Virus record (IMG/VR): IMGVR_UViG_3300031998_000040
Span: 34,345 to 98,344 of that record
DNA length: 64,000 nucleotides
DNA from: a virus
Taxonomy: Duplodnaviria > Caudoviricetes
Direction: 5' to 3' (one strand)
Below are positions 4,269 through 37,637 of this stretch, in pieces. The position numbers and the translations under genes are program-made. A model generated the notes under the pieces. The model was not told the origin of the DNA. It made no database searches and saw only the letters and a list, made by a program, of their open reading frames with translations. Position 1 is the stretch's first letter; every line of letters begins with the position of its first letter.

Positions 4269-4541
4269 ATGAAATCCATATCCGGTAAATTCTCCCGCGT
4301 TTCCGCCACGGACTACCATGACGGCGTTGTGCTTGTCGGTCTCTGCGGCAACGTGTGGCCCCACGACCTCACGACCGAGCACAAATACTACATCATGAAT
4401 TTCTATAACATGAACCCCTGCCGCATCACTCTATGCGCCGAGTGGCCGGAGGGCATAGAGCCCGCCTATCCTGCGGCCAAGAAAAATTTCGTCAACGGGT
4501 TTGTCCTGCTGGATAACCGTCCCCCTGTCGCGGAATCTTGA
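4269..4541 (+). CDS. Hypothetical protein
   Basis: AAAGGAG RBS upstream of ATG4269. Confidence 0.6.
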   Translation: MKSISGKFSRVSATDYHDGVVLVGLCGNVWPHDLTTEHKYYIMNFYNMNPCRITLCAEWPEGIEPAYPAAKKNFVNGFVLLDNRPPVAES

Positions 4542-4566
4542 CACGTCCGCCCGCTCATGGTAAAGT
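4538..4566 (+). promoter_or_regulatory. Sigma-A type promoter
   Basis: TTGACA-17 bp-TAAAGT with extended TG. Confidence 0.7.
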
Positions 4567-4587
4567 CAGCGCAAAGGAGGGCTTTTG

Positions 4588-4845
4588 ATGGCAGATAACA
4601 AAGCAAAGTATAAAGCGAACCGGACGTACCGGGCGAAACACTATGACCGCATCGAAGTCCAGATACCCGCAGGAGCCAAAGAAAAGCTGAAGGAGTTTGC
4701 GGAACAGGCCGGGGAAAAGAGCCTTTCTTCCTGGCTCATGGGTTTGATCGAGCGCGAGACGGGGATCTCACTTGTCCTGCGCGGTGAGCTTCCCTATTGG
4801 AAGCCTGACGAACAATCATCCAAAGACAGCAGCGGGGCCGATTGA
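4588..4845 (+). CDS. Ribbon-helix-helix (Arc-like) DNA-binding protein
   Basis: YDRIEVQIPAGAKEKLKEFAEQAGEKSLSSWL; AAAGGAGG RBS. Confidence 0.7.
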   Translation: MADNKAKYKANRTYRAKHYDRIEVQIPAGAKEKLKEFAEQAGEKSLSSWLMGLIERETGISLVLRGELPYWKPDEQSSKDSSGAD

Positions 4846-4923
4846 ATAATCGGTCCCGTTTCCGTGTCATAAATGACATGATATATCAAATCTAAAAAAA
4901 CGAAATGGAAGGAGGTATGACAT

Positions 4924-5268
4924 TTGGCAAAACACATCTGTACCGTAAAAATCCCCCGCTCCGTCTATGATCGTGTAAACCGCTTGCTGGCGTTTGGTAC
5001 TCCCTTTGAAGAAATGACGGACGAAGAAATGAGAGACGCCGGTGTGCGCGACCACTACTGCGAGGGAATTTTCACAGCGTTCTTCGACGATGGTTCCCAC
5101 CTGAACTTCGACCTCTGTTCCGGTTCTTCCAACTACTTTGACGACGCAGTATGGACGAGCGCGGACGGACGCACCGACGTGACGTTGGAATGTGCTTTCG
5201 AGCTGTCCGACATCGAAGTGGAAACTGATGGAGAAGTCTACGTCGTCAATCTGAATATCAGCGATTGA
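4924..5268 (+). CDS. Hypothetical protein (TTG start)
   Basis: AAGGAGG RBS. Confidence 0.7.
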   Translation: MAKHICTVKIPRSVYDRVNRLLAFGTPFEEMTDEEMRDAGVRDHYCEGIFTAFFDDGSHLNFDLCSGSSNYFDDAVWTSADGRTDVTLECAFELSDIEVETDGEVYVVNLNISD

Positions 5269-13150: not shown

Positions 13151-14083
13151 ATGATTTACACACGCGCCGCCGCCGCGTTCCTCAACTACTGCCGAGCGTC
13201 CGGCATGACCGCCGCCACCGTGGAGAACCACGAGCGCAACCTCCGCCTGTTCTCCGAGACCGTCGCCCTGCCGGACGCCGACGCCGAGATCACCGTCGCC
13301 CACATCGACGAATACAAATCCCTGCTCCACCTCCGGGGCCTGAAGCAGTCCACCGTCCGCGCCTACCTCGAATCCCTCTGCCTGTTCTTCGCGTGGGCCA
13401 CCGAGCGGAAATACTGCGCGGAGAATCCCTGCACCCCCTCCGCCGTGAAGACCAAAGTTCCGCCCCCCGCGCCGTACAACCATCTGCTCACCCGTGAGGA
13501 AATGGCTGCGCTTCTCTCCCCCGTCTGCCCCAAGGGATGCACGAAGAAACTCTTCAACCGCAACCATGCCATCGTCACCGTGCTTCTCACTTCGGGCCTC
13601 AGAAATTCGGAACTCCGGGAGCTGCGTCTCTGCGACCTGATTCCCTCCGAGAACCGCCTCATCGTCCGCTGCGGCAAGGGCGGCAAGACCCGCTCCGCCC
13701 CCTACCCCCCGGCGGCGCAGGATGCCGTCGCCGCTTGGCTCGCCGACCCGCTCAGGCCGTCTTCGTTGCCCTCTGACGCGATTCTTTTCGGGAAAGGTAC
13801 GAACACCGCCTCGTGGCAGATGTTCAGCAGGACGGAGCTGAGCACGATGGTGGAGCGGTTTACCAAGACGGTGCTGGGAAAGGACTCCGGCGTCCGCACC
13901 CACGCCCTCCGCCACGCCAACGCCAGCTATCTGTGGGACAGCGGCATGAGGATGGAGGACATCCGCGATCTACTCGGTCACAGCGATGTGAAAGTCAGCC
14001 AGATGTATATTTCCCGCCTGCGTCCTCAGACCGCAACCGAATCCGCCACCAATGCGTTCGCGGCTCTGAGCCAAGCGGTATGA
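13151..14083 (+). CDS. Tyrosine recombinase/integrase (XerC/D-like)
   Basis: GLRNSEL, GKGGK, HALRH, LLGH and catalytic Y in SQMY. Confidence 0.93.
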   Translation: MIYTRAAAAFLNYCRASGMTAATVENHERNLRLFSETVALPDADAEITVAHIDEYKSLLHLRGLKQSTVRAYLESLCLFFAWATERKYCAENPCTPSAVKTKVPPPAPYNHLLTREEMAALLSPVCPKGCTKKLFNRNHAIVTVLLTSGLRNSELRELRLCDLIPSENRLIVRCGKGGKTRSAPYPPAAQDAVAAWLADPLRPSSLPSDAILFGKGTNTASWQMFSRTELSTMVERFTKTVLGKDSGVRTHALRHANASYLWDSGMRMEDIRDLLGHSDVKVSQMYISRLRPQTATESATNAFAALSQAV

Positions 14084-14090
14084 ATCAGGA

Positions 14091-14918
14091 GTGATTTCCG
14101 TGAAAGAAAAACTAGACCTCACCGGCAAACAGTTCGGTGATTGGACGGTTCTCTATGAAGAACCGCAGGAAGGGTATGTCAGGAAGTGGCGTTGCCGTTG
14201 TGTCTGCGGTGCCGAGAAAACCGTATATCAAGGTAATCTTACCCAAGGGAAAAGCCACGGATGCGGGTGCGCTGCTCGAAAGCTCACCGGTGAACGAGCA
14301 AGAACGCACGGGAAAAGAAACACCAGGTTATACAATATTTGGGTGCTTATGAGGCGCAGATGCTACGATGAATCCAGCGTATCTTACAAGAATTATGGAG
14401 GTCGCGGAATATCCGTTTGCGACGAATGGCTTGGCCATGACGGATTTCAGCACTTTTGGGATTGGTCCCATGAAAACGGATATAGCGAATCTGCGTCTCC
14501 GAGAGACTGCTCTATTGACAGGATTGATGTAAACGGTAATTACTGCCCTGAAAACTGTCGCTGGATTGATATGCGATCACAGTCCAGAAATAAACAAGGC
14601 ACTCATTGGGTAGAGTTTGGTGGCGAGACAATTTCACTTGCTGAATTTTGCGAGAGATACAACGTCGCTCCTGCTCTAGCAAGTGCAAGATTTCAGCGTG
14701 GGTGGTCCCCTGCCGAAGTCATGTTCTTCCATCCGAAATATCTTCCGAAATTGATTGAGTACAAGGGGGAAACCAGAACACAGCGAGGGTGGGCCAAGCA
14801 CTTTGGAATAGACCACAGAAAGCTCCAGTACCGCTTAAATCATGGGTGGACATTTGAGCAGGCGATAGGCATTGCTCCTCCGCCAAATAGGTACTCCAAT
14901 TCTCAAAAAGGAGATTAA
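14091..14918 (+). CDS. HNH-type homing-endonuclease-like protein
   Basis: LTGKQFG, CRCVCG, YGGRGI.VC.EW, SIDRIDVNGNYCPENCRW; lower GC than flanks. Confidence 0.85.
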   Translation: MISVKEKLDLTGKQFGDWTVLYEEPQEGYVRKWRCRCVCGAEKTVYQGNLTQGKSHGCGCAARKLTGERARTHGKRNTRLYNIWVLMRRRCYDESSVSYKNYGGRGISVCDEWLGHDGFQHFWDWSHENGYSESASPRDCSIDRIDVNGNYCPENCRWIDMRSQSRNKQGTHWVEFGGETISLAEFCERYNVAPALASARFQRGWSPAEVMFFHPKYLPKLIEYKGETRTQRGWAKHFGIDHRKLQYRLNHGWTFEQAIGIAPPPNRYSNSQKGD

Positions 14919-14923
14919 ACACC

Positions 14924-15007
14924 ATGCGCTACCTCGACCGTCTCCGCCCCACCGCCCCGACGGACCACGCCGCCGACGCTTTCGCCGCCCTCCGCGCCGC
15001 CGTCTGA
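14924..15007 (+). pseudogene. Displaced original C-terminus of the recombinase (27 codons, possibly translated)
   Basis: MRYLDRLRPTAPTDHAADAFAALRAAV*; 14/25 identical to recombinase end YISRLRPQTATESATNAFAALSQAV*. Confidence 0.85.
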
Positions 15008-15048: not shown

Positions 15049-15092
15049 AAAGGGACTGGACGCCTCACCGCGCCCGGTCCCTTTTATTTTTT
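15049..15092. terminator. Terminator between converging transcription units
   Basis: AAAGGGACTGG...CCGGTCCCTTTTATTTTTT. Confidence 0.7.
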
Positions 15093-15121
15093 GCCCTTTA
15101 TATATAGCTTGCTACCAATCC

Positions 15122-16948
15122 TCAAGTCGCCGGAACGACCGTGTTGCTGGTGTAATAGGTCGTGTTGATCGTCGGCGTCCCAGTGAATGTCCCACCGGTT
15201 CCGGTGAACATATCCGTCGCTACTTCCGATCCATAGCCAGGGTTTATAATGGTTCCTGTCCCATTGATCGGGATTCGGTATTGTGTTGCATACTCTGCTG
15301 ATTGCGTTTCTGATAATTTTATCTTTATACATCCACGATACATTTCGTTATAGCACATGGAATACAGTTCCGTTGGCCTCAACGCGCTTAATGATGTTAA
15401 TGCTGTGCATCCATAATACATACCTTCACATGAATAGACGCCAAGCATCGTAGCCATGATTTTTGGCGGGGTCACAAGGCTGGTACACCCATAAAACATA
15501 TTGCAGCATCCCCAATAGTCTATTTGACTTGCTGTAATATCAGGCACGTCCACAAGGCTGGTGCATCCGTAATACATATGTGAACATGCTTCTTGCCCAA
15601 TTATACGTGTCGATAACTTTGCTGCTTTTCTGAGTGAAGTACATCCATCGAACATATGATAACAGGACTCAGGTGTAAGATCGCTTGTTATATCTGGTGC
15701 TTCCAAAAGTCCGGTCCCGGAGAACATATAGCTATACACACTGGTATTCCATATATTGCCGCTTCCACGATATGTCTTGGCTGCAAGCGGAGACGGTGCC
15801 GAAACAAGGGCAGAACACCCATGAAACATATAGGCAAAACAGCTATCGCGTGTTTCTGGATGCCCACCTGCTGCTACTGTTTCCCAGTCCAAAAGGGTTT
15901 CAATATTTCCATCTGCTTCAACAGAAGAACCCGTAATTACCCAGTGAAACTCAATGCTATTTACTCCCGTAATCACCGTATTCCCCGTACCGCGCATGAA
16001 AATCTCGTTGGTGTCCCCAGAGGAAATCGTAGTAGTTCCGTCCCACTCAGTCCACGTCATTCCGTCTGCGGAATAGTACAGCGCCCCGTTCCAGTCTTTA
16101 CATGCTCTGTATTTTCCAATCGTAAAGCTCTGCGGAGAATGGAACCGTACATAGTTCTTGTTCACTCCCAGTTCCTCCACCGTGCACTGCGCCGTCATGT
16201 TCCCCGGAACGCCGCCCCACGCCATCGCCGTCAGCACCCCGCCGTTGTTGTAGACGTGGACCGCACGGACGCCACGGCTCATAAGGTCCTCCATCTGCGT
16301 GGGCGTGAACTGAAGCTCCACATGGCTTTTCTCCGTCACGGTCGGTCCCGTGACGGTGATGATCTTCGTATAGGGGCTGGCTGCGCCGCTCCATGTCCCC
16401 GCCATGGCGACGGTCCCCCGCCGCAGCGAAGGATTCGCCTCGCTGTATTGCAGCACGTTCTCCACGTTTCCGAGACCGGCTTCTTCTGCCGTGACCTCGT
16501 GCGGATTGTTCCGCCGTGCAAAGTGCGCCGCCGCCGCGTCCGCGATCCGCGTCTCCGTCCAGTGGGTCGAATCCCAGGCTTCCGGCGTGTCGATGTCGGT
16601 GTTGGCTCGGTAAAGGATTCCGCCGTAGATGCAGAAGTCCCCCTCTGCGTAGGTCGAGGAGCTGTCATAGGTGTCTGCCAGGTTCTTCTCGATATCCCGC
16701 TCCGTCACCCAGATGTAGGCTTCCCCGTCCTGCGCCGTCATCTGCCAGATCGCCGGGGGACTGACGCTCGTATCGGCGTAGAGCTGACCCACGCCACCCG
16801 CCGTTGCGGTCGTCGGCGCTCCGCTTCCGCTGAGTATCTGGCTGTTTTCGATGGTGCCGCTCATGGCCCGCAGCTCCGTCGGACCGATGGCAGGCGGTAC
16901 GCCGTTTACCCAAACCGGCGCGGCGTAGTTCCCGTTATACATCGGCAT
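15122..16948 (-). CDS. Tail fibre/receptor-binding protein with BspA-like leucine-rich repeats
   Basis: NPHEVT..GLGNVEN fibre motif; repeated C..MFxGCTSL; lower-GC C-terminal half. Confidence 0.8.
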   Translation of the reverse strand: MPMYNGNYAAPVWVNGVPPAIGPTELRAMSGTIENSQILSGSGAPTTATAGGVGQLYADTSVSPPAIWQMTAQDGEAYIWVTERDIEKNLADTYDSSSTYAEGDFCIYGGILYRANTDIDTPEAWDSTHWTETRIADAAAAHFARRNNPHEVTAEEAGLGNVENVLQYSEANPSLRRGTVAMAGTWSGAASPYTKIITVTGPTVTEKSHVELQFTPTQMEDLMSRGVRAVHVYNNGGVLTAMAWGGVPGNMTAQCTVEELGVNKNYVRFHSPQSFTIGKYRACKDWNGALYYSADGMTWTEWDGTTTISSGDTNEIFMRGTGNTVITGVNSIEFHWVITGSSVEADGNIETLLDWETVAAGGHPETRDSCFAYMFHGCSALVSAPSPLAAKTYRGSGNIWNTSVYSYMFSGTGLLEAPDITSDLTPESCYHMFDGCTSLRKAAKLSTRIIGQEACSHMYYGCTSLVDVPDITASQIDYWGCCNMFYGCTSLVTPPKIMATMLGVYSCEGMYYGCTALTSLSALRPTELYSMCYNEMYRGCIKIKLSETQSAEYATQYRIPINGTGTIINPGYGSEVATDMFTGTGGTFTGTPTINTTYYTSNTVVPAT

Positions 16949-16978: not shown

Positions 16979-17680
16979 TCATTTTCCGTCATCATCCCCG
17001 CGTATGAGCCGCACGATCATCTTGAAGAACCGATAGAGGATGACGCAGATTTCGGCGCGGGTCGCCCCCTGATTCGGCTTGAAGCTCCCGTCCGGGAATC
17101 CCTTGATAATCCCGTTTTCCTGCGCCCATCGGATTTCAGTTTCGGCGTAATGCCCGGTTACATCGTCTACTACAACAGGTTCTGGCTGATAGTTCGGACG
17201 GCATACCCCGACCACGTTCTTGACGCTACGCAGCTTCTTCGCCACACAGCCGCCGTTATATTCTTCTTGCGGAGTTCCCTCCACGCCGGGGGTCGTATTC
17301 CCCTCGATGGTGTACCAAGTCCCGGCCAGCTTGCCTTTCTCGACAACAAGGCCGCAATGCTCCGTGTCGAGTTCGCCGTTCACCTTTTTTCCAGAGAAGT
17401 TCAGGATCAGGATGTCGCCGACCTGAATCTCGGAGTTCGGAACGGTTTGGCCTTGTTCTCGGTAGCAGCGGAGAAGCGTCCGGCACGAAGCGGTCTTACC
17501 GCCGTTGTAGAACGCCATCCGTTCACCGGCCTTGTTAAACCAATAGGCGGGTGCCATAACACACCACGGCTGCCCGTTCACGCCATACCATTCACCGAAC
17601 TTTGTCTGATTACTGTTCGGTGGGAATTCTGTATAGCCGAGGTCTTCCAGCGCCGCGTCAATAACCGCTTGCTTGCTCAT
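16979..17680 (-). CDS. Endolysin, CHAP domain plus SLH domain
   Basis: GQPWC, EHCGLV, TIEGNT; SLH motif GIIKGFPDGSFKPNQGATRAE; AAGGAG 7 nt before ATG17680. Confidence 0.9.
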   Translation of the reverse strand: MSKQAVIDAALEDLGYTEFPPNSNQTKFGEWYGVNGQPWCVMAPAYWFNKAGERMAFYNGGKTASCRTLLRCYREQGQTVPNSEIQVGDILILNFSGKKVNGELDTEHCGLVVEKGKLAGTWYTIEGNTTPGVEGTPQEEYNGGCVAKKLRSVKNVVGVCRPNYQPEPVVVDDVTGHYAETEIRWAQENGIIKGFPDGSFKPNQGATRAEICVILYRFFKMIVRLIRGDDDGK

Positions 17681-18344
17681 ACTCATTCTCCTTATGCCAC
17701 TCATAACCACGGTAGGATTTCAGGTGTCCATTAGCGGCCTGTTGCACACACCAACGGTCATAACCGTGTTTATCAGCTTCCACAGCGGATGCGAAGCGAA
17801 TGATTTCTCCTGTCTGGTTATGAATTCCAATAACCGGGATTGAACGAACCCGTCTGAGTTTTTCAATACCTTCCTCTGACCAGTTCTTTTTCTTCCCTGT
17901 CAGACCAGCAGAAACCCTGAGATTGTGAGTGCCGTAGTTGCAGTTATACTTTGCCGTACACCATTCCAGATTTTCAACACAGTTATTGTGCTTGTTCTCG
18001 TCCTTGTGGTTTATGAACGGTAGCTCTTCTGGATTAGGTATGAACGCTTCAGCGACAAGGCGATGAATCTTCACGTCCTTCCGCACTCCGTTCACGCAAA
18101 AGTTGAGGCACAAATACCCTCGCCGTTCTATCGGCCTGAGGATATGCCAATCACGGTTACGAACACGACCCATGTTGCTGACTTCGTATCTGGTTTCGTA
18201 ACCTTTGGCTGGTCTCCACTCCTCCTGCTCCCCTTGCAGTTCAGGCCACCATTCCGACCAGTATTCGACCCGATTCGACTCAGCCGGGTCTTCGTGTACG
18301 CCCAGCTCTCCCCGGGCGATTTCGATTACTTTTGATAGGCTCAT
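17658..18344 (-). CDS. NUMOD4-HNH endonuclease fused to an endolysin-like N-terminus
   Basis: EEWRPAKGYE..YEVSNMGRVR; IHRLVAEAFIPN; INHKDENKHNNCVENLEW; first ~40 aa resemble the lysin N-terminus. Confidence 0.9.
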   Translation of the reverse strand: MSLSKVIEIARGELGVHEDPAESNRVEYWSEWWPELQGEQEEWRPAKGYETRYEVSNMGRVRNRDWHILRPIERRGYLCLNFCVNGVRKDVKIHRLVAEAFIPNPEELPFINHKDENKHNNCVENLEWCTAKYNCNYGTHNLRVSAGLTGKKKNWSEEGIEKLRRVRSIPVIGIHNQTGEIIRFASAVEADKHGYDRWCVQQAANGHLKSYRGYEWHKENEYEQASGY

Positions 18345-29817: not shown

Positions 29818-32800
29818 TCAGTTCTCTCCTTTGTATTGCCCAAGATTCCCGGCCATCCGTGCCAGCTCATAGACCGTTGTGGTTTTTGCCGCCTGCTCTC
29901 CGATGGTCACGCCGTTCATGGTGTAGGTGTCGCCGTTGTACTGTGCTCCGATGCTCTGGTCGATGGGCTGCGGTATTCCTTCCAGCATCCCGAACAGATT
30001 CCGCACCGTGTCCAAACCCATTCGGCTCAGGTCGTTGTTCAGCGGGTCCATCATCTTCGCCGTGATATCCGGCGGCAGGATGAATTCGTCCCGCGCCGTG
30101 GCCTTGATCCCGCCGACGCCCCGCAGGATACCGCCGCTGTCATAGGTGGTTTCCTCGTCGCTTTCCGGCGGTTCGGAAGTGATGCCGAACTGCGCCATAT
30201 GATCCGCTTCCAGCTTGTCCCAGTCGATATACACGCCCTCCGGTATGTTGGTCACGCGGCCTTTCATGTCCCGCATCTTTCCGTGTACGGCAAGTTCGTA
30301 ATCTGTGGCGGTATCCATGTTGTAAATATAACCGTTGGAACTTTTGAAGTAGTGGCCGTCGTTCAGGTCGTGATAAACTCCTTCTGCATCATAAACGTAT
30401 TGTCCTGAGATAATACCTATGGTGATTTGCCCGGATTTCCCACTGTTGGCAAGGAATCCCGTTCCTTTATACAAAGGTTTTCCGTCGGTACTGCCGCCGC
30501 CTCCCGCATTAGCCGCGTTCCCGGCTACTGCCTCGTCCAGAGTGTCATACTCGTTCCCATAGCTGTCGTAGTATTTCCCCGTACCGGCTGCGCCTCGAAT
30601 GCCGGAATTGCCTGCGCCGCCGGAGCTTCCGCTTCCCCCGCCGGAACTGCCGCCGCCGGTGCTCTCCCCGTATCCGCTCTTGCCGCTCACGTCCACGCCC
30701 TTTTGGCTGCCGTAAAGCTGGCTTCCGTTCAGATACCAGTAGCCGCTGGGGTCGTAGGTCGCGCCGATCAGGCTGCCGAGATATTCGTTCTGCGCGTGGA
30801 GATAGGCCCGTTCTTCCTCGTTGGCGTCGAACCAGCGGGCGGAGTTGACCTTCATGAGGTTGATGATGACGGATTTCCACAGCTCGTCGATGCTCATGTT
30901 GGTCTTGTCCATTCCGGCGATGGCTTCTTCCAGAGCGCCGGTCATGTCGATGCCGTATTTGTCGGCGATCTCCCTGGCCCTGTCCCGAAGGTAAGAATAG
31001 GCGTCCTCCATGCTCATTTCGCCGTTCTTTACCTTTTCGGAAGCCTGATCGAATGCGTTTTTGAATGCGCCGACCGCCTTTTCGTATTCCTTCAGCTTTT
31101 CGTTGAGGATGCCCACGCTGGCCCCCAGCGTGTCCGCCACCTCCTGCGTCAGCCCGTCGATGCCGTAGTTCAGGTCCTTGAAGCCGCCGATGGAATCCTC
31201 CAGCACGAAGCCCAGGTCCACCCCGTAGGTGTCCTGAATCTCCCGCATGGCGTTATACATGTAGTCGTAGGCTTCCTTGAAGGTCATTGCCCCGGCCTTG
31301 ATCTGGTCGCTAACGTACTCCCACGCGTCTTTGAAGGCTTTCCACGCCTGATCCTTCTGATATTTCGCCAGATCGTCCTGCGCCTTTTTCAGCGCGTCCT
31401 CCGCGCTCTTGACGGTCTTGGCGTTGGCCCGCCACTCCCACTGGCCCGTCGCCGCGTTGTAGTACCGTACCGTGCGTTCCTTCTGCGCGTTGGCGAGGTC
31501 CGCCTGCGCCTTTTGCACCGCGAGGATTTTTTCTTCCAGGCTGAGTTCTTCCTGCTTGTCGGTAAGGATTTTGGCGTAGTAGTCGTCAACGGTCTTCTTG
31601 ACCGTCTCGAACATCTCCTGCTGGAGCTTCTTCTGTTTCTCCAGCGAATCCTCGATTTCTTTCTGGATGTTCCACCACTCGGTGCTCAGTGCCAGAATCG
31701 ATGTCTCGTAAGCGCGGATTTCTTCTTCCGACGCGCCCTGCTCTTTCATGACGGCGAGGATGCGCCGCATTTCCTCCGCCTGATCGTGGAGGGAAGCTTG
31801 GATTTCCTTGCGCTTGGCGTTGATCTCGTCTTCGCTTTTTCCGCTCGCAATAAGGAAGCTGAGTTCCTGCTTGCGGTAGTCCACGATCCCCTTGAGCCGG
31901 TTCAGCTCCGTCTGGTCGATATCCTGAAGCTTCTGTTTGGTTGCCAGAATGTCCTTCTGGATTTCCCACCATTCGGTACTCAGCGCCAAAATTTCGGCGT
32001 CGATCTTCGCCAGCTCCGCTTCCGACGCGCCCTGCGCCTCCATCTCGGCGCGGATCTGTCTCTTGTATTCCGCTTCTTCGTGAAGCGCCGCCTGAATCTC
32101 TTTTCTCTTGGCGTTGATTTCGTCTTCGCTGGCACCGCTGGCTTCGAGGAATTGCAGTTCCGCCTTTCTGAGACTGACGATGCTCTCCAGCCGTTCCAGC
32201 TCGTCAACGGTTTTTTCTCCCGTCTCCGCCAGCGCGTCGTTGATGTTCTTCTGTACGTTCCACCATTCGGTGCCGGTTGCCAGTATCTGAGCGTCGATCT
32301 CCGCCAGTTCTTCCTCCGTCGCGCCCTGCGCTTCCATCTCGGCGCGGATGGCCCTGCGGCGTTCGTTCTCGTCGTGGAGGGCATTTTGGATTTCCTTGTA
32401 CTTGGCGACGATTTCTTCCGTGCTGGCTCCGCTGGCCTGCAAAAAGGCCAGCTCCGCCTTGCGAAGTTCCACGATGCTCTGCAGCCGCGCAAGCTCCTCG
32501 TCCGTGGTGTTGCCGCTTCCGTCATCCCTGTATCCGCTCCGCGCCCGCAGCGTGGCGATATAGGCGTCCCACTCCGCTTTCTGTGCTTTTACTCCGGCGA
32601 GCTGGGACTGCACGATGTCATAATGCGCCTGCGACGCACCGCCGCCGGTCATAGCCAGAACCCCGGCCATCTGCGCCTGCGCCTGCTGGTTCGTCATCGC
32701 GGCTACCGCCGCTCCGGCAATGTCCCAGTATGCCGCCGCCACAGATTCAAGTTCTGCTATGGCGCTGGAAAATTCAAGCTGCTTCTGCGTGTCGATGAAG

Positions 32801-35800
32801 TCCAGCAAATCCGCCTTGCTGGCGATCATGCTGGCGACGATCTTCCACGTCGCTGTGTTGAAATCGTAAAGCTTGTCCGTGCTGCCGGGGATTTCCGCCT
32901 CCAGTTTGACCATGGCGTTGTAGACTTCGATACTTCCAGCGCCGAAGTCCGTCATGGCGGTGATGACTTCTCCGATGGCGGTGTCGTACTTGGTCGCCGC
33001 TTCGCTTGCTTCCGCCATTCTTTCCGTCAGGGTCTTGACTTTCGGCGCGGCGTTGTCTTGCTCGTTGTTCAGGTCTTTCGTGCGCCCCGCTACTCTGCTT
33101 CCACTTTCTTCAACCTTTTGATAAGTTCCGTCCAGAATGGAAAGCGCAGTCTCGTAAGCTTCTACGGTGGTCGTCGCTTCTTCGTATTCTTTTTTCAGCC
33201 GCTTGTATTCATCCGTCAGAACGCCGAGAGCACGAGCCTGCGCATTGGTCATGTTCTCCGCTTTCATGGCGTTGTCGATGGCCTTTTCGTAGAACGCTAT
33301 GGCTTCTTCATAGGAAAACTGCTGATTGATGCCGCCATAGTCCATGTTCACTTTCCTGTCCCCGGACAAAATGTTCTGGGACATCCGGTAGGCGGCCTGA
33401 TTGTCTATGGTGTATTGTTTTGCTTTGGCTTTGGATTCTTCGTTGATTAGGCCGATAGCGATTTCACGAAGTTCGTTTACGTCGTTGATGCTCTCCCATT
33501 CTTCGTTATACTTTTCCGTAGACTTTTTCAGGAGAGTAATCAGCTCGTCCCGGCTCAGGTTTTCGCTTCCGAGTTTTTCGGTAAGGTCATCGTATTTATC
33601 AGTCAGGTTTTGAATGCTTGCCGCTTCCGTGGCCGCTTTTTCAAGGGACTCCCGCCTCGCCTGTTCTACCTGACGGTAAATCATAATAAAGGCGCTGACG
33701 GCAGTAATCATAAGACCGATGGAGGTGGTCGCCGCCGTCATATTGGAGGTTGTGCCTTTCAGCACATCTCCAAGGTTCTTAAAGGTATCGCGCACGTCTT
33801 TGAGTGCGCCTATGACCTCTTTGCCCTTGAATATGGTAAACAGACCTGCTGCTGCGGCAGCGGCAAGACCGGCGTTGTCCGCAAAGTCTACGACAGCCGT
33901 GGAAATGTCCAGAATACTCTTGATAAAGTTGGAGTTGATGGTGTTGGCGATAAACTCCGTCCAGGTGTTCTTGAGAATGTTGGTCTTGGCTTCCCAGGTA
34001 TCCAGCATGACGCCGATTTCCTTGTCGGCGCTTCCCGCGCTTTCCTTCGTCTTGTCCAGCATCTCCTGCATCATGTCGAAGTTCTGGACGAGGGCGGTCA
34101 ACTGGTTGGTGCGGAGCTTGCCGCCCAAGCTGGAAAGGACTTCAAAGAGTTCCGCCTGATTGACAAGTCCTTCCTCACTGGCCTTGGCAAGCGCGGCGAT
34201 GGCTTCCATCGGGTTGACGACGGTTCCTGCCGCATCCGCCGCAGCCAGCGCGTCTTTCGCGTAGACCTGGAGGATGCCGTCCAAAGATTTCACGGATTCC
34301 TCCGTGATCTCCAGACCGTCCTCATATTCTCCCACAGCGCCGATGATATTGAGGATCAACGCCCTCAACGCAGTAGCGGCCTTGGTGCCCGTCTCCTGCG
34401 TCACGCTGGTGATCGTGCCCAACGCGGCGATGGTTTCTTCAAATGTCATGCCCGCCTGCGCCGCGATGCTGGATACGATGGGCATACCGGCGGCCAGCTT
34501 CTCGATGCTGGTAGCGTAGTTGTTCTCGATGATGTTGGCGGCGTCCAGCGTTTTGTTCAAAGCTTCTACGTCACCGTTCATCTTCCACGCCGCGTTGGAT
34601 GCGATCAGGAACTTGTTTGCGATTGTGGAGGTAACGTCTCCGACGAGCTGCGTCTTAGTGGCGATTTCTGCAAGCTGTTCGGACTGGTCTCCGAAACCGG
34701 CCTTGGCGAATTCCGCCACGCTCTCCAGATAGTCCTGCGCGGCAACGCCGTAAGCGGACGCCACTTTGTATGCGGCCTCCGCTGTTCTCTGCATTTGCTG
34801 GTCGGTACGGTCTGTGACCTTCTGGATATTGGCAAGCTCCGTATCCACCGCTTTCATGGTGGCAAGGGCTTCCCGCAGGCTTCCTATGACCTTGGTGACG
34901 ATGTTCCCGCCGATATACCAGCGGGCAAACTTCTGAATGTTCATCCAGAAGGATTCCGTCACCTTGTCCAGCTTGTTGGTTTCTTCCCGGACTTCGGCAA
35001 ACTGCGCTTTTTCTTTTTTAAGCCCGGAACTCAGGCGGTCAACGTCACCTACCAAAGTCTTGCTGGTGCTGTCCAGATTCTGAAGTTCTCTCTGTGCCTC
35101 CCGTGCTTCTTTTTCGATTTCGTCGAAGGTTCCTTCCGGGTATTGCGCTTTGAGTACCTCAATCTGCCGAATGAAGTTTGCGTATTCCCGGCGAAGGGAA
35201 ACTACCTGATCTTCAGCTTTCTTCTGTGCCGCCGCCTGACGCTGGGCCTGCTTTTCTGCTTCGGCTGCGTCCTTCTCGTCCTGTTCCCGATTGAATCGGG
35301 ACATTTGCAGCTTGAGCTTGTTCTTTTCTTCGGTGGCTTTACGCTCGGCTTCCAGTTCTTTCTGCCGCTTTGCTTCGGCTTCTTTGGCGTCTTCCTCGTC
35401 CCACTTTCTGTATTGCTCGAAGACATAGCGTTTCAGCTTGACAAAATCATCCGCCTGTTTCTGCGCGATCTTGTCAAGCTCTTTATAGTTTTTGATTTCG
35501 GACTCGGTGACGTTCCCCTGCGCGTCTTCGACGGTCTTGAAAGCGGTGAGCGCAGTCTTTTGGTACTCTTTGGTTCTTTGGATTAGGTCTCCGGTCGCTT
35601 TGTCCACCGTCGTTGTGGACCGCATCAGCGTTCCGTATTCTTTGTCCAGCCGTCCCGCCTGCGTAGCAACGTCCCGAAGACCCGTAGCCATCTTCTGCAC
35701 CGACTGAGCGCCGCTACTGTCAATGGTAATCTTGACGTTCCCTATGCTTTTGGAAATGTCATTCTTTATCGCTGCGATAGCCTTGCTTACTTCGCTGTAA

Positions 35801-35832
35801 TCCGGCTTGAATACCAGTTTAATCTCTGCCAT
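29818..35832 (-). CDS. Tape measure protein
   Basis: 2004 aa; helical, Ala/Glu/Lys-rich; TP901-like core (VDTELANIQKVT...). Confidence 0.92.
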   Translation of the reverse strand: MAEIKLVFKPDYSEVSKAIAAIKNDISKSIGNVKITIDSSGAQSVQKMATGLRDVATQAGRLDKEYGTLMRSTTTVDKATGDLIQRTKEYQKTALTAFKTVEDAQGNVTESEIKNYKELDKIAQKQADDFVKLKRYVFEQYRKWDEEDAKEAEAKRQKELEAERKATEEKNKLKLQMSRFNREQDEKDAAEAEKQAQRQAAAQKKAEDQVVSLRREYANFIRQIEVLKAQYPEGTFDEIEKEAREAQRELQNLDSTSKTLVGDVDRLSSGLKKEKAQFAEVREETNKLDKVTESFWMNIQKFARWYIGGNIVTKVIGSLREALATMKAVDTELANIQKVTDRTDQQMQRTAEAAYKVASAYGVAAQDYLESVAEFAKAGFGDQSEQLAEIATKTQLVGDVTSTIANKFLIASNAAWKMNGDVEALNKTLDAANIIENNYATSIEKLAAGMPIVSSIAAQAGMTFEETIAALGTITSVTQETGTKAATALRALILNIIGAVGEYEDGLEITEESVKSLDGILQVYAKDALAAADAAGTVVNPMEAIAALAKASEEGLVNQAELFEVLSSLGGKLRTNQLTALVQNFDMMQEMLDKTKESAGSADKEIGVMLDTWEAKTNILKNTWTEFIANTINSNFIKSILDISTAVVDFADNAGLAAAAAAGLFTIFKGKEVIGALKDVRDTFKNLGDVLKGTTSNMTAATTSIGLMITAVSAFIMIYRQVEQARRESLEKAATEAASIQNLTDKYDDLTEKLGSENLSRDELITLLKKSTEKYNEEWESINDVNELREIAIGLINEESKAKAKQYTIDNQAAYRMSQNILSGDRKVNMDYGGINQQFSYEEAIAFYEKAIDNAMKAENMTNAQARALGVLTDEYKRLKKEYEEATTTVEAYETALSILDGTYQKVEESGSRVAGRTKDLNNEQDNAAPKVKTLTERMAEASEAATKYDTAIGEVITAMTDFGAGSIEVYNAMVKLEAEIPGSTDKLYDFNTATWKIVASMIASKADLLDFIDTQKQLEFSSAIAELESVAAAYWDIAGAAVAAMTNQQAQAQMAGVLAMTGGGASQAHYDIVQSQLAGVKAQKAEWDAYIATLRARSGYRDDGSGNTTDEELARLQSIVELRKAELAFLQASGASTEEIVAKYKEIQNALHDENERRRAIRAEMEAQGATEEELAEIDAQILATGTEWWNVQKNINDALAETGEKTVDELERLESIVSLRKAELQFLEASGASEDEINAKRKEIQAALHEEAEYKRQIRAEMEAQGASEAELAKIDAEILALSTEWWEIQKDILATKQKLQDIDQTELNRLKGIVDYRKQELSFLIASGKSEDEINAKRKEIQASLHDQAEEMRRILAVMKEQGASEEEIRAYETSILALSTEWWNIQKEIEDSLEKQKKLQQEMFETVKKTVDDYYAKILTDKQEELSLEEKILAVQKAQADLANAQKERTVRYYNAATGQWEWRANAKTVKSAEDALKKAQDDLAKYQKDQAWKAFKDAWEYVSDQIKAGAMTFKEAYDYMYNAMREIQDTYGVDLGFVLEDSIGGFKDLNYGIDGLTQEVADTLGASVGILNEKLKEYEKAVGAFKNAFDQASEKVKNGEMSMEDAYSYLRDRAREIADKYGIDMTGALEEAIAGMDKTNMSIDELWKSVIINLMKVNSARWFDANEEERAYLHAQNEYLGSLIGATYDPSGYWYLNGSQLYGSQKGVDVSGKSGYGESTGGGSSGGGSGSSGGAGNSGIRGAAGTGKYYDSYGNEYDTLDEAVAGNAANAGGGGSTDGKPLYKGTGFLANSGKSGQITIGIISGQYVYDAEGVYHDLNDGHYFKSSNGYIYNMDTATDYELAVHGKMRDMKGRVTNIPEGVYIDWDKLEADHMAQFGITSEPPESDEETTYDSGGILRGVGGIKATARDEFILPPDITAKMMDPLNNDLSRMGLDTVRNLFGMLEGIPQPIDQSIGAQYNGDTYTMNGVTIGEQAAKTTTVYELARMAGNLGQYKGEN
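31650..32505 (-). repeat. Three tandem 98-aa repeats in the tape measure
   Basis: EL.RL..IV..RK.EL.FL.ASG...TEWW..QK three times at 98-residue spacing. Confidence 0.9.
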
Positions 35833-36521: not shown

Positions 36522-36550
36522 TTGCTATAAACATCCTGTTGTGGTATAAT
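36522..36550 (+). promoter_or_regulatory. Sigma-A type promoter for antisense-oriented HNH gene
   Basis: TTGCTA-17 bp-TATAAT with extended TG. Confidence 0.75.
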
Positions 36551-36556
36551 GCTATT

Positions 36557-36660
36557 GGAAGGTTGCGGCTTCCTTATATGTGGTACATCGCGGGGCTTGT
36601 CCCCGCTTTGTTCAGTACGCCGATGGAGCGCCGCAACCGCTCGGTCGGCGTATTTTTATC
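36557..36660 (+). ncRNA. Structured leader with kissing-loop terminator
   Basis: Hairpin loop GTTGCGG (36562-68) is complementary to terminator loop CCGCAAC (36631-37). Confidence 0.55.
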
Positions 36661-36671
36661 GGAGGTGTGCT

Positions 36672-37637
36672 ATGAGAACCGAAGATTTGACGGGTAGAGA
36701 ATACGGTTACTTTACCGTCCTTGGATTTGACCGCTCCGTTGGGGGAAAGCGGTATTGGAACTGCCGTTGCATTTGCGGGAATACCCGAAGTGTAATGACT
36801 TCGTGCTTGATAAACGGCAGGATAAAGTCGTGCGGTTGTATGAATAAAACCAATCGAATTGATCTTACCGGGCAGCGATTCGGCAGGCTTATCGTTACCG
36901 GACTTCATGAAGACCCGAACGACGATAAGTTGAAATGGGATTGCGTCTGCGACTGCGGTAATCGAAAGGTCGTATATGGTGCGCATCTTCGTTACGGTAA
37001 AGTCAAAAGCTGTGGATGCCTAAAAGCCGAGAATGATGCTCCACATCCAGATTCCTTCTACAATCAACGCCTATACGGAGTATGGTGCGGTATGTTGCAG
37101 CGATGCTCTGATAAAGGGCATTCTTCTTTCCACAATTACGGTGGTCGCGGGATTGCCGTTTGCGACGAATGGAGGAACTACGAAGTATTCCGGTCTTGGG
37201 CTTACGCAAACGGTTACGACGAAAACCACGATTCAACGTCATGCACGCTTGACCGCATTGATGTGAATAGTGACTACTGCCCTGAGAATTGCCGCTGGGT
37301 TGACAGGAAAACTCAGAGCCGCAATACGAGGCGCAATTTCCTTGTTGAATACAAAGGAGAATTGTTGTCCGCCACAGATGTTGCCGAAAGGGAGGGAATC
37401 AAAGCCAACACATTACTTAAGCGATTAAAAAGTGGATATTCATTGGAAGAAGCATTGTGTCACGAGAGGGTAGGTCTTCCAACAACTCGCCCTGTAATAT
37501 GTGTAGAACTTAACCGAAGGTTTGATTCAATACTCGATGCTTCCGGGTTCATCAACGTAAAGCCAAGTGCTATCAGCAGGGCATTGCGTGATGGTGGGAG
37601 AAGCGGAGGCTATCATTGGCGCTATGCCATTAACTAA
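36672..37637 (+). CDS. HNH-type homing-endonuclease-like protein (same family as 14091-14918)
   Basis: Two DLTG..(Y/F)G/C.C.CG units; LDRIDVNSDYCPENCRW; NUMOD1-like end; GGAGGT RBS. Confidence 0.85.
   Translation: MRTEDLTGREYGYFTVLGFDRSVGGKRYWNCRCICGNTRSVMTSCLINGRIKSCGCMNKTNRIDLTGQRFGRLIVTGLHEDPNDDKLKWDCVCDCGNRKVVYGAHLRYGKVKSCGCLKAENDAPHPDSFYNQRLYGVWCGMLQRCSDKGHSSFHNYGGRGIAVCDEWRNYEVFRSWAYANGYDENHDSTSCTLDRIDVNSDYCPENCRWVDRKTQSRNTRRNFLVEYKGELLSATDVAEREGIKANTLLKRLKSGYSLEEALCHERVGLPTTRPVICVELNRRFDSILDASGFINVKPSAISRALRDGGRSGGYHWRYAIN

Follow-up and report, generated by a model that had tools for sequence, protein, structure and literature searches.

Organization of the recombinase locus

The DNA analyzed here, referred to throughout as the window, is the right-hand 64 kb (64,000 nucleotides, nt) of a 98,344-bp virus record from IMG/VR (IMGVR_UViG_3300031998_000040). 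It carries a tyrosine recombinase gene whose 3' end is present twice, once within the gene itself and a second time as a fragment, here termed the orphan, behind a gene for an HNH-like protein (Table 1). We describe the in-gene end and the HNH-like gene as a candidate mobile homing-endonuclease cassette.

The recombinase matches the Phage_integrase family PF00589 over residues 113-287 (E = 1.8e-18, 67.3 bits versus a cut-off of 27.1) as well as the N-terminal SAM-like domain PF02899, and is XerC/D-like by NCBIfam. In an alignment of 25 homologues (A1), R151, K176/K179, H251-x-x-R254, H277 and Y286 fall in invariant columns, and the catalytic R-K-H-R-H/W-Y set is complete when the in-gene end is included. 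R151, K176/K179 and H251-x-x-R254 are encoded by the gene body, and the LLGH histidine H277 and the catalytic tyrosine Y286 by the cassette-borne segment 13964-14083.

The HNH-like open reading frame (ORF) opens seven bases past the recombinase stop. Its likely start is the GTG at 14100, which fits the 272 amino acids (aa) of the gene-caller product P0121; an alternative GTG start at 14091 would give 275 aa. The orphan abuts and overlaps the HNH stop codon and corresponds to the final 28 codons of a recombinase from this family; from 14921 it reads TMRYLDRLRPTAPTDHAADAFAALRAAV, followed by a stop codon that ends at 15007. From the catalytic tyrosine to the stop, 14 of 25 residues are identical between the in-gene end and the orphan, and their DNA is 56% identical over the 87 nt that they share. 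Further downstream, a hairpin with a U-run, which was detected by RNA folding and not reported by a simple terminator scan, probably represents the intrinsic terminator native to the recombinase operon, which is now located 3' of the orphan. In relatives that have not been invaded, here called naive, a 155-aa gene lies between the recombinase stop and this conserved terminator (L011 4947-5414; L006 about 4438-4900).

Table 1. Features of the recombinase locus in the window, with the number of G/C-ending codons and their fraction (GC3)
Feature	Position	Strand	G/C-ending codons	GC3	Remarks
Tyrosine recombinase gene	13151-14083	+			310 aa; C-terminal end ...LLGHSDVKVSQMYISRLRPQTATESATNAFAALSQAV, then stop
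Native recombinase body, codons 1-271	13151-13963	+	235/271	0.87	Pfam match; ~90% DNA identity to HNH-free relatives
Substitute recombinase 3' end	13964-14083	+	24/39 (13964-14080)	0.62	codons 272-310 and stop; drop in identity
Shine-Dalgarno-like AGGAG	14087-14091	+			8 nt before GTG 14100; read directly from the sequence
HNH-like (PVL ORF-50-like) putative homing endonuclease gene	14100-14918	+	130/272	0.48	272 aa; stop at 14916-14918
Orphan (displaced native 3' end)	14917-15007	+	26/28	0.93	starts 3 codons ahead of the catalytic Tyr, ends with the native stop; match to L011
Hairpin and U-run	15049-15095	+			fold -23 kcal/mol, z = -4.6; 97% conserved with L011 5429-5495

The orphan corresponds to the native end of the recombinase

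Codon usage separates the two ends. In a sliding profile, a drop in GC3 from ~0.9 to 0.6 lies at about 13955-13970. The codon counts set the in-gene end apart from the body (Fisher p = 3e-4) and from the orphan (p = 0.004), and orphan and body do not differ (p = 0.55).

We compared the locus with 56 recombinases found by database search at 68-95% identity, all of 307-310 aa. The last ~45 residues of these homologues form sharply distinct types, even where the bodies are 92-98% identical. When the window is aligned to the HNH-free locus L011, positions 13151-13964 match at 89.8%, the next 952 bases are skipped, and the match resumes over 14917-15007 at 92.3%; bases 13965-14916 are an insertion relative to HNH-free relatives. 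The segment of L011 that the orphan matches is the functional 3' end of its recombinase (4843-4933; 91 nt, E = 6e-33), and the likeness between orphan and recombinase is not due to chance. In 48-nt windows, identity to five naive relatives is ~0.9 in the body and 0.38-0.50 across 13964-14035. Two homologues whose bodies are 92-95% identical to that of the window recombinase, P0005 and P0009, end in exactly the last 22 residues of the orphan; over these residues, identity to the relatives is 0.91-1.00 for the orphan and 0.55-0.64 for the in-gene end. The L011 alignment, the drop in identity and the ends of P0005 and P0009 thus indicate that the orphan is the native end and that the in-gene end came in together with the HNH gene.

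The window orphan lacks nine native codons, which in L011 encode S-V-L-R-H-S-D-S-K, and therefore a deletion in the invaded allele cannot have given rise to naive ones; the change ran from the naive to the invaded state. On the left, the limit of the insertion is fuzzy (about 13940-13965), as expected for a homologous crossover. A single-protein scan of IMG/VR gave no close relatives, and an alignment scan of the same database gave one phage with two HNH-free copies of the recombinase.

These results bear out most of the original prediction, which had been made from the DNA of the window by itself. It had proposed that the recombinase C-terminus is duplicated across the HNH gene, that the orphan shares the codon preferences of the body and is the original end, and that the in-gene end uses more A/T-ending codons, like the HNH gene; the GC3 break also lies near the position, 13967, that it had named. 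Its limits for the element, 13967-14920, were accurate to within a few bases on the right.

The arrangement recurs in seven assemblies

Seven HNH-bearing loci were available (the window, L020, L021, L022, L023, L024 and L050), in assemblies from different samples and studies. The nearest relatives of this HNH protein, at 57-79% identity, are each encoded directly behind a recombinase of the same family, and the order is the same in all seven loci: body, substitute end of low GC3, HNH gene, orphan native end. In each of them the GC3 of the last 40 recombinase codons is 0.13 to 0.30 below that of the body. The gap between recombinase and HNH gene measures 7-18 nt (100 nt in L023), and the orphan starts at the HNH stop codon in 7/7 loci; where the contig is long enough, the orphan's frame stays open as far as the native stop. 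No orphan was found within 1.5 kb in any of ~16 distinct HNH-free loci.

The substitute ends are of several types: S-Q-x-Y-I in the window, L020, L021 and L022, T-T-R-I-Y-L-S in L023, T-A-R-Y-A-E in L024 and T-T-N-I-Y-A-Q in L050. The DNA of the window in-gene end is 100% identical to that of the end in L022. Orphans agree with the end type of their own locus lineage, but in-gene ends do not. Moreover, the orphan of L050 carries an I-S-R-L-R-P-E-T-A-T tail, the type that is in-gene in the window, and therefore the cassette hands on ends without their being intrinsic to it. This qualifies the proposal that the element brought in a new LLGH...Y end: the end is indeed foreign, with the identity of 0.38-0.50 given above, but its type is not specific to the element, as both the L050 orphan and the differing ends of the other cassettes indicate.

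Two classes of junction were seen. One, found in the window, L022, L021 and L050, has the HNH stop directly against the codon for Thr, three positions ahead of the catalytic Tyr; in the other, found in L020, L023 and L024, the stop falls roughly two codons past this Tyr.

We also considered whether the orphan is translated as a peptide. In the window (14907-15007) an AAGGAG lies 11 nt upstream of the ATG at 14924, and a 27-aa orphan peptide is translatable in principle. The AAGGAG stems from the C-terminal codons of the HNH gene and is absent in L020, L021, L023 and L024; since the signal is not conserved, we took it as a by-product of these codons and rejected the peptide.

A more distant HNH relative (44-46% identical) occupies positions 1020-1838 of L051, where it overlaps the start of a different tyrosine recombinase gene by 4 nt; its other neighbour is a 240-aa gene that was judged by eye to be ThyX-like. 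The link of this HNH family with recombinase genes may thus be wider.

Independent movement and probable footprints of the cassette

Two pairs of loci have closely similar recombinase bodies and different cassettes. Third-position differences between L021 and L050 amount to 17% for the body, 54% for the HNH gene and 67% for the in-gene end; between L023 and L024 the values are 17%, 52% and 62%, respectively. A cassette divergence of 52-67% versus 17% for the body indicates that the cassette moves independently of the gene, and implies separate acquisitions or replacements of cassettes in nearly identical backgrounds. When L022 is compared to the window, the flanks are 92-100% identical, whereas the central ~370 nt of the HNH gene (14330-14700) are 48-70% identical, a pattern that suggests an exchange of domains by recombination between lineages of the endonuclease.

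The closest HNH-free homologues overall, L010 (P0001, 95% identical protein) and L028 (94%), end in mosaics. Their DNA is 96-100% identical to the window substitute end up to ...GAATCCGCC, after which the last 11 codons are an orphan-type tail. The GC3 dip is retained in both, from 0.83 to 0.68 in L010 and from 0.85 to 0.60 in L028. These chimeras look like cassettes that have lost the HNH gene and not like the ancestral state; incomplete conversion is an alternative. The original prediction had not expected the YISRLRPQ version of the end at the closest HNH-free homologues. Taken literally, L010 and L028 do carry it, but as chimeras, in which an orphan-type tail follows a cassette-end head with its GC3 dip.

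Other HNH-free alleles of the S-Q-x-Y-I type also show the dip (L018, 0.77 to 0.55; L015, 0.84 to 0.70). L017 is without it, with a GC3 of 0.65-0.68 over the whole gene, and may represent a lineage in which this end type is at home.

Around the catalytic tyrosine, ACN-NNN-CGY-TAY (T-x-R-Y) is common to nine naive alleles. In six of the seven substitute ends and in 6/6 HNH-free footprint alleles, the codon before TAY is ATN (TCA in L018), i.e. the residues are I/M/S-Y. This difference in T-x-R-Y coding between alleles hints at a lead to the recognition site.

In L036 (398-1000, on a 1.9-kb contig) a 94%-identical recombinase homologue diverges past residue 183 and stops early, which may reflect another insertion or an assembly break.

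The HNH-like protein

The HNH-like protein matches phrog_374 ('HNH endonuclease') with E = 2e-64. An AlphaFold2 model built with 41 homologues has a predicted local distance difference test (pLDDT) value of 91, and matches in BFVD are to models of phage 'HNH endonuclease', PVL ORF-50-like and homing endonuclease proteins, down to E = 5e-24, although these names are themselves annotations. Residues 67-171 of the model superpose weakly on PacI (3m7k_A; Z = 6.0, 85 residues, root-mean-square deviation 4.0). Cysteines C37, C39, C58, C110 and C156 are invariant, in clusters suggestive of zinc sites, and a D-R-I-D-x-N-G-N-Y...N-C-R-W...Q..N stretch is conserved; together they would be compatible with a zinc-bound beta-beta-alpha-metal site.

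A second HNH-like paralogue, 42% identical and with the N-terminal Cys-rich module repeated, lies at 36549-37637 (+) in the window. It is located among tail genes, on the strand opposite to theirs, just after a 2004-aa tape-measure-like ORF (29818-35832, -). A tblastx search around the paralogue gave no significant duplicated end of a neighbouring gene.

A mobile cassette as the probable explanation

We consider it quite probable that 13964-14918 of the window is a mobile homing-endonuclease cassette in the 3' part of the tyrosine recombinase gene. The cassette would consist of two parts: a foreign, differently coded copy of the last ~39 codons, with the LLGH histidine, the catalytic tyrosine and the stop, and an HNH-like endonuclease gene that stands free and has a ribosome-binding site of its own. 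Translation of the native body continues into the substitute end, which keeps the recombinase whole. The native end would be cut off from translation and left as an orphan directly after the endonuclease stop, ahead of the native terminator.

For its spread, the endonuclease would cut cassette-free alleles in the T-x-R-Y-coding segment around the catalytic tyrosine, and a co-infecting phage with the cassette would provide the template for repair of the break. The recombinase body would serve as the left homology arm, and the orphan with the downstream DNA, including the conserved terminator region, as the right arm. A cassette-bearing allele would be immune, since its native site is split and the DNA of the substitute end differs (CAG-ATG-TAT versus ACN-NNN-CGY-TAY). 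Co-conversion of the flanks would shift end types between lineages, and recombination between the two tails would delete the endonuclease and leave a chimeric, resistant end.

Several points weigh against this explanation. The orphan junctions of different loci lie at two positions 18 nt apart, so that the insertion point is either not unique or eroded. The substitute end of L024 keeps the naive-like T-A-R-Y coding, which weakens immunity by recoding for that lineage, and because of this exception the recognition-site comparison is only a lead. Cleavage and homing by the HNH-like protein are steps that we infer. The protein itself matched no Pfam-A or NCBIfam family at E <= 0.01, a Foldseek search of the model against the PDB gave nothing at E <= 0.001, and the PacI match, with Z = 6, lies in the range of chance arrangements. 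A canonical first HNH histidine, the general base, is not evident in the DRIDVNGNY...NCRW stretch. A sequence search against solved structures likewise found no relation. Given the PDB result, the weak PacI match and the histidine, the nuclease identity, which rests on phrog_374, the BFVD structural matches and PacI, is probable and not proven.

The data can also be read without any target cutting. In such passive modular exchange, the 3' end of the recombinase gene and the slot that follows would form an ordinary hot spot of recombination between related phages. The HNH-like gene, a passenger or otherwise useful to the phage, would have entered it through a homologous crossover at the left edge and an illegitimate join at the right. 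The slot is indeed variable, since the 155-aa gene carried by L011-type phages is absent from the window, end types are highly mosaic even among HNH-free alleles, and a nuclease role is predicted for a protein without a Pfam HNH match. What makes this reading unlikely is the precision of the arrangement: in 7/7 loci, with at least four orphan types, the HNH stop is placed against an orphan that starts at most six codons from the catalytic Tyr, and orphans accompany the HNH gene in all seven loci but are found in none of the ~16 without it.

A single ancient insertion, with vertical inheritance, many losses and fast in-place divergence of the cassette, would agree with the finding that the most similar HNH pairs occur in the most similar backgrounds (L021-L050, 67% and L023-L024, 68% amino-acid identity). 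We rejected it as very improbable: the third-position divergence of HNH gene and in-gene end is 3-4 times that of the adjoining body, the window orphan is undecayed (92% identical to its functional relative, versus 90% for the body, and open in frame to the native stop), and truncated orphans cannot regenerate naive ends. Two further readings, a tandem duplication of the 3' end at the locus with later divergence and a chimeric assembly, are suggested by two homologous ends in the same orientation. They are scarcely credible and were rejected, since the in-gene end shows 100% identity to ends from other assemblies and only 56% to the adjoining orphan, and the arrangement is found in seven assemblies from different samples and studies.

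Relation to known systems

The closest parallel to the proposed cassette is found in fungal mitochondria, in the gene hybrids formed by mobile endonuclease ORFs (mORFs). The first was described in Allomyces macrogynus atp6 (PMC3630166; its ref. 48, Paquin et al. 1994), and others are known from Glomus sp. atp6, atp9, cox2 and nad3, Rhizopus atp9 and Mortierella cox2 (PMC3630166). They are read as endonuclease-driven insertions with horizontal transfer of coding sequence, and that the endonuclease drives mORF mobility was shown biochemically according to the same source (PMC3630166). As in these hybrids, the window and six further loci have a foreign C-terminus in frame, then an ORF for an endonuclease and, behind that, the native C-terminus, and it is the native copy that is nearer to relatives (91-98% versus 64-81% in Glomus, PMC3630166; 92% versus 38-50% DNA identity here). 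The phage loci differ in that the host of the element is a phage and not a mitochondrion, the endonuclease is HNH-like (PVL ORF-50-like) and not LAGLIDADG or GIY-YIG, its ORF is separate, with its own stop, Shine-Dalgarno sequence and start, instead of being an in-frame fusion, and the target is a tyrosine recombinase. In addition, cassette lineages, naive alleles and footprint alleles were all sampled in one phage group. By analogy, the phage cassette would work like an mORF without being a member of the mORF group.

T4 SegF/SegG and MobE are free-standing phage endonucleases that bring about intronless homing with co-conversion of flanking markers. Genes of this kind lie between genes or split a gene into pieces, as in Aeh1 nrdA. 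The present cassette resembles them in being present or absent at one locus among close relatives (bodies 92-95% identical), in the mosaic identity break at its edge and in the flanking donor sequence that travels along; they are not known to bring a substitute gene end and leave a duplicated orphan, as it does. Free-standing phage homing endonucleases with flank co-conversion are well known and have been reviewed (PMC2988022, PMC2790892). To PacI and other beta-beta-alpha-metal (HNH) nucleases the link is the weak structural match only, with no sequence-level relation to any solved structure.

In the open-access literature, the published endonuclease cassettes that we found to go with a duplicated gene end are all mitochondrial or plastid, and none is from a phage. 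We lean towards the broader view that this HNH-like cassette family targets the catalytic-tyrosine segment and so makes the last ~45 codons a freely exchanged module in rumen/gut Oscillospiraceae phages, with naive, invaded and resistant-footprint stages side by side, and that it is the first phage counterpart of the mORFs. A selfish endonuclease gene could then inhabit an intact, needed gene by way of a spare end, without intron or intein, and one gene segment, here holding two catalytic residues of the recombinase, would be far more mosaic than the rest. For annotation, such cassettes would account for short orphan gene tails behind HNH genes and for abrupt codon-usage breaks within genes. 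If the view is correct, the counterpart is testable with naive and immune target sequences in hand, and the natural series of cut-prone and immune alleles would allow fast mapping of the recognition site. Fungal mitochondria already provide documented cases of the principle; what is gained is therefore breadth and a good test system rather than a new concept.

Host and neighbouring genes

A recombinase 88% identical to that of the window is present in a metagenome-assembled genome of Oscillospiraceae from yak cecum (L025), and the other loci are metagenome assemblies; the host of the window phage is probably a member of the Oscillospiraceae.

In L010 (7743-8825) and L011 (7983-8933) a reverse transcriptase gene (RVT_1, 360 aa) is encoded on the opposite strand, downstream of the recombinase by a few genes, and may belong to a diversity-generating retroelement next to the tail-fibre region. 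In the window, the 608-aa ORF at 15122-16948 (-) has repeated C-x-x-M-F/Y-x-G-C-T-S-L motifs and appears leucine-rich-repeat-like by eye; on the same visual reading, it is probably a receptor-binding protein. The 243-aa ORF that comes next, at 16979-17710 (-), resembles by eye a cell-wall hydrolase with an SLH-type tail.

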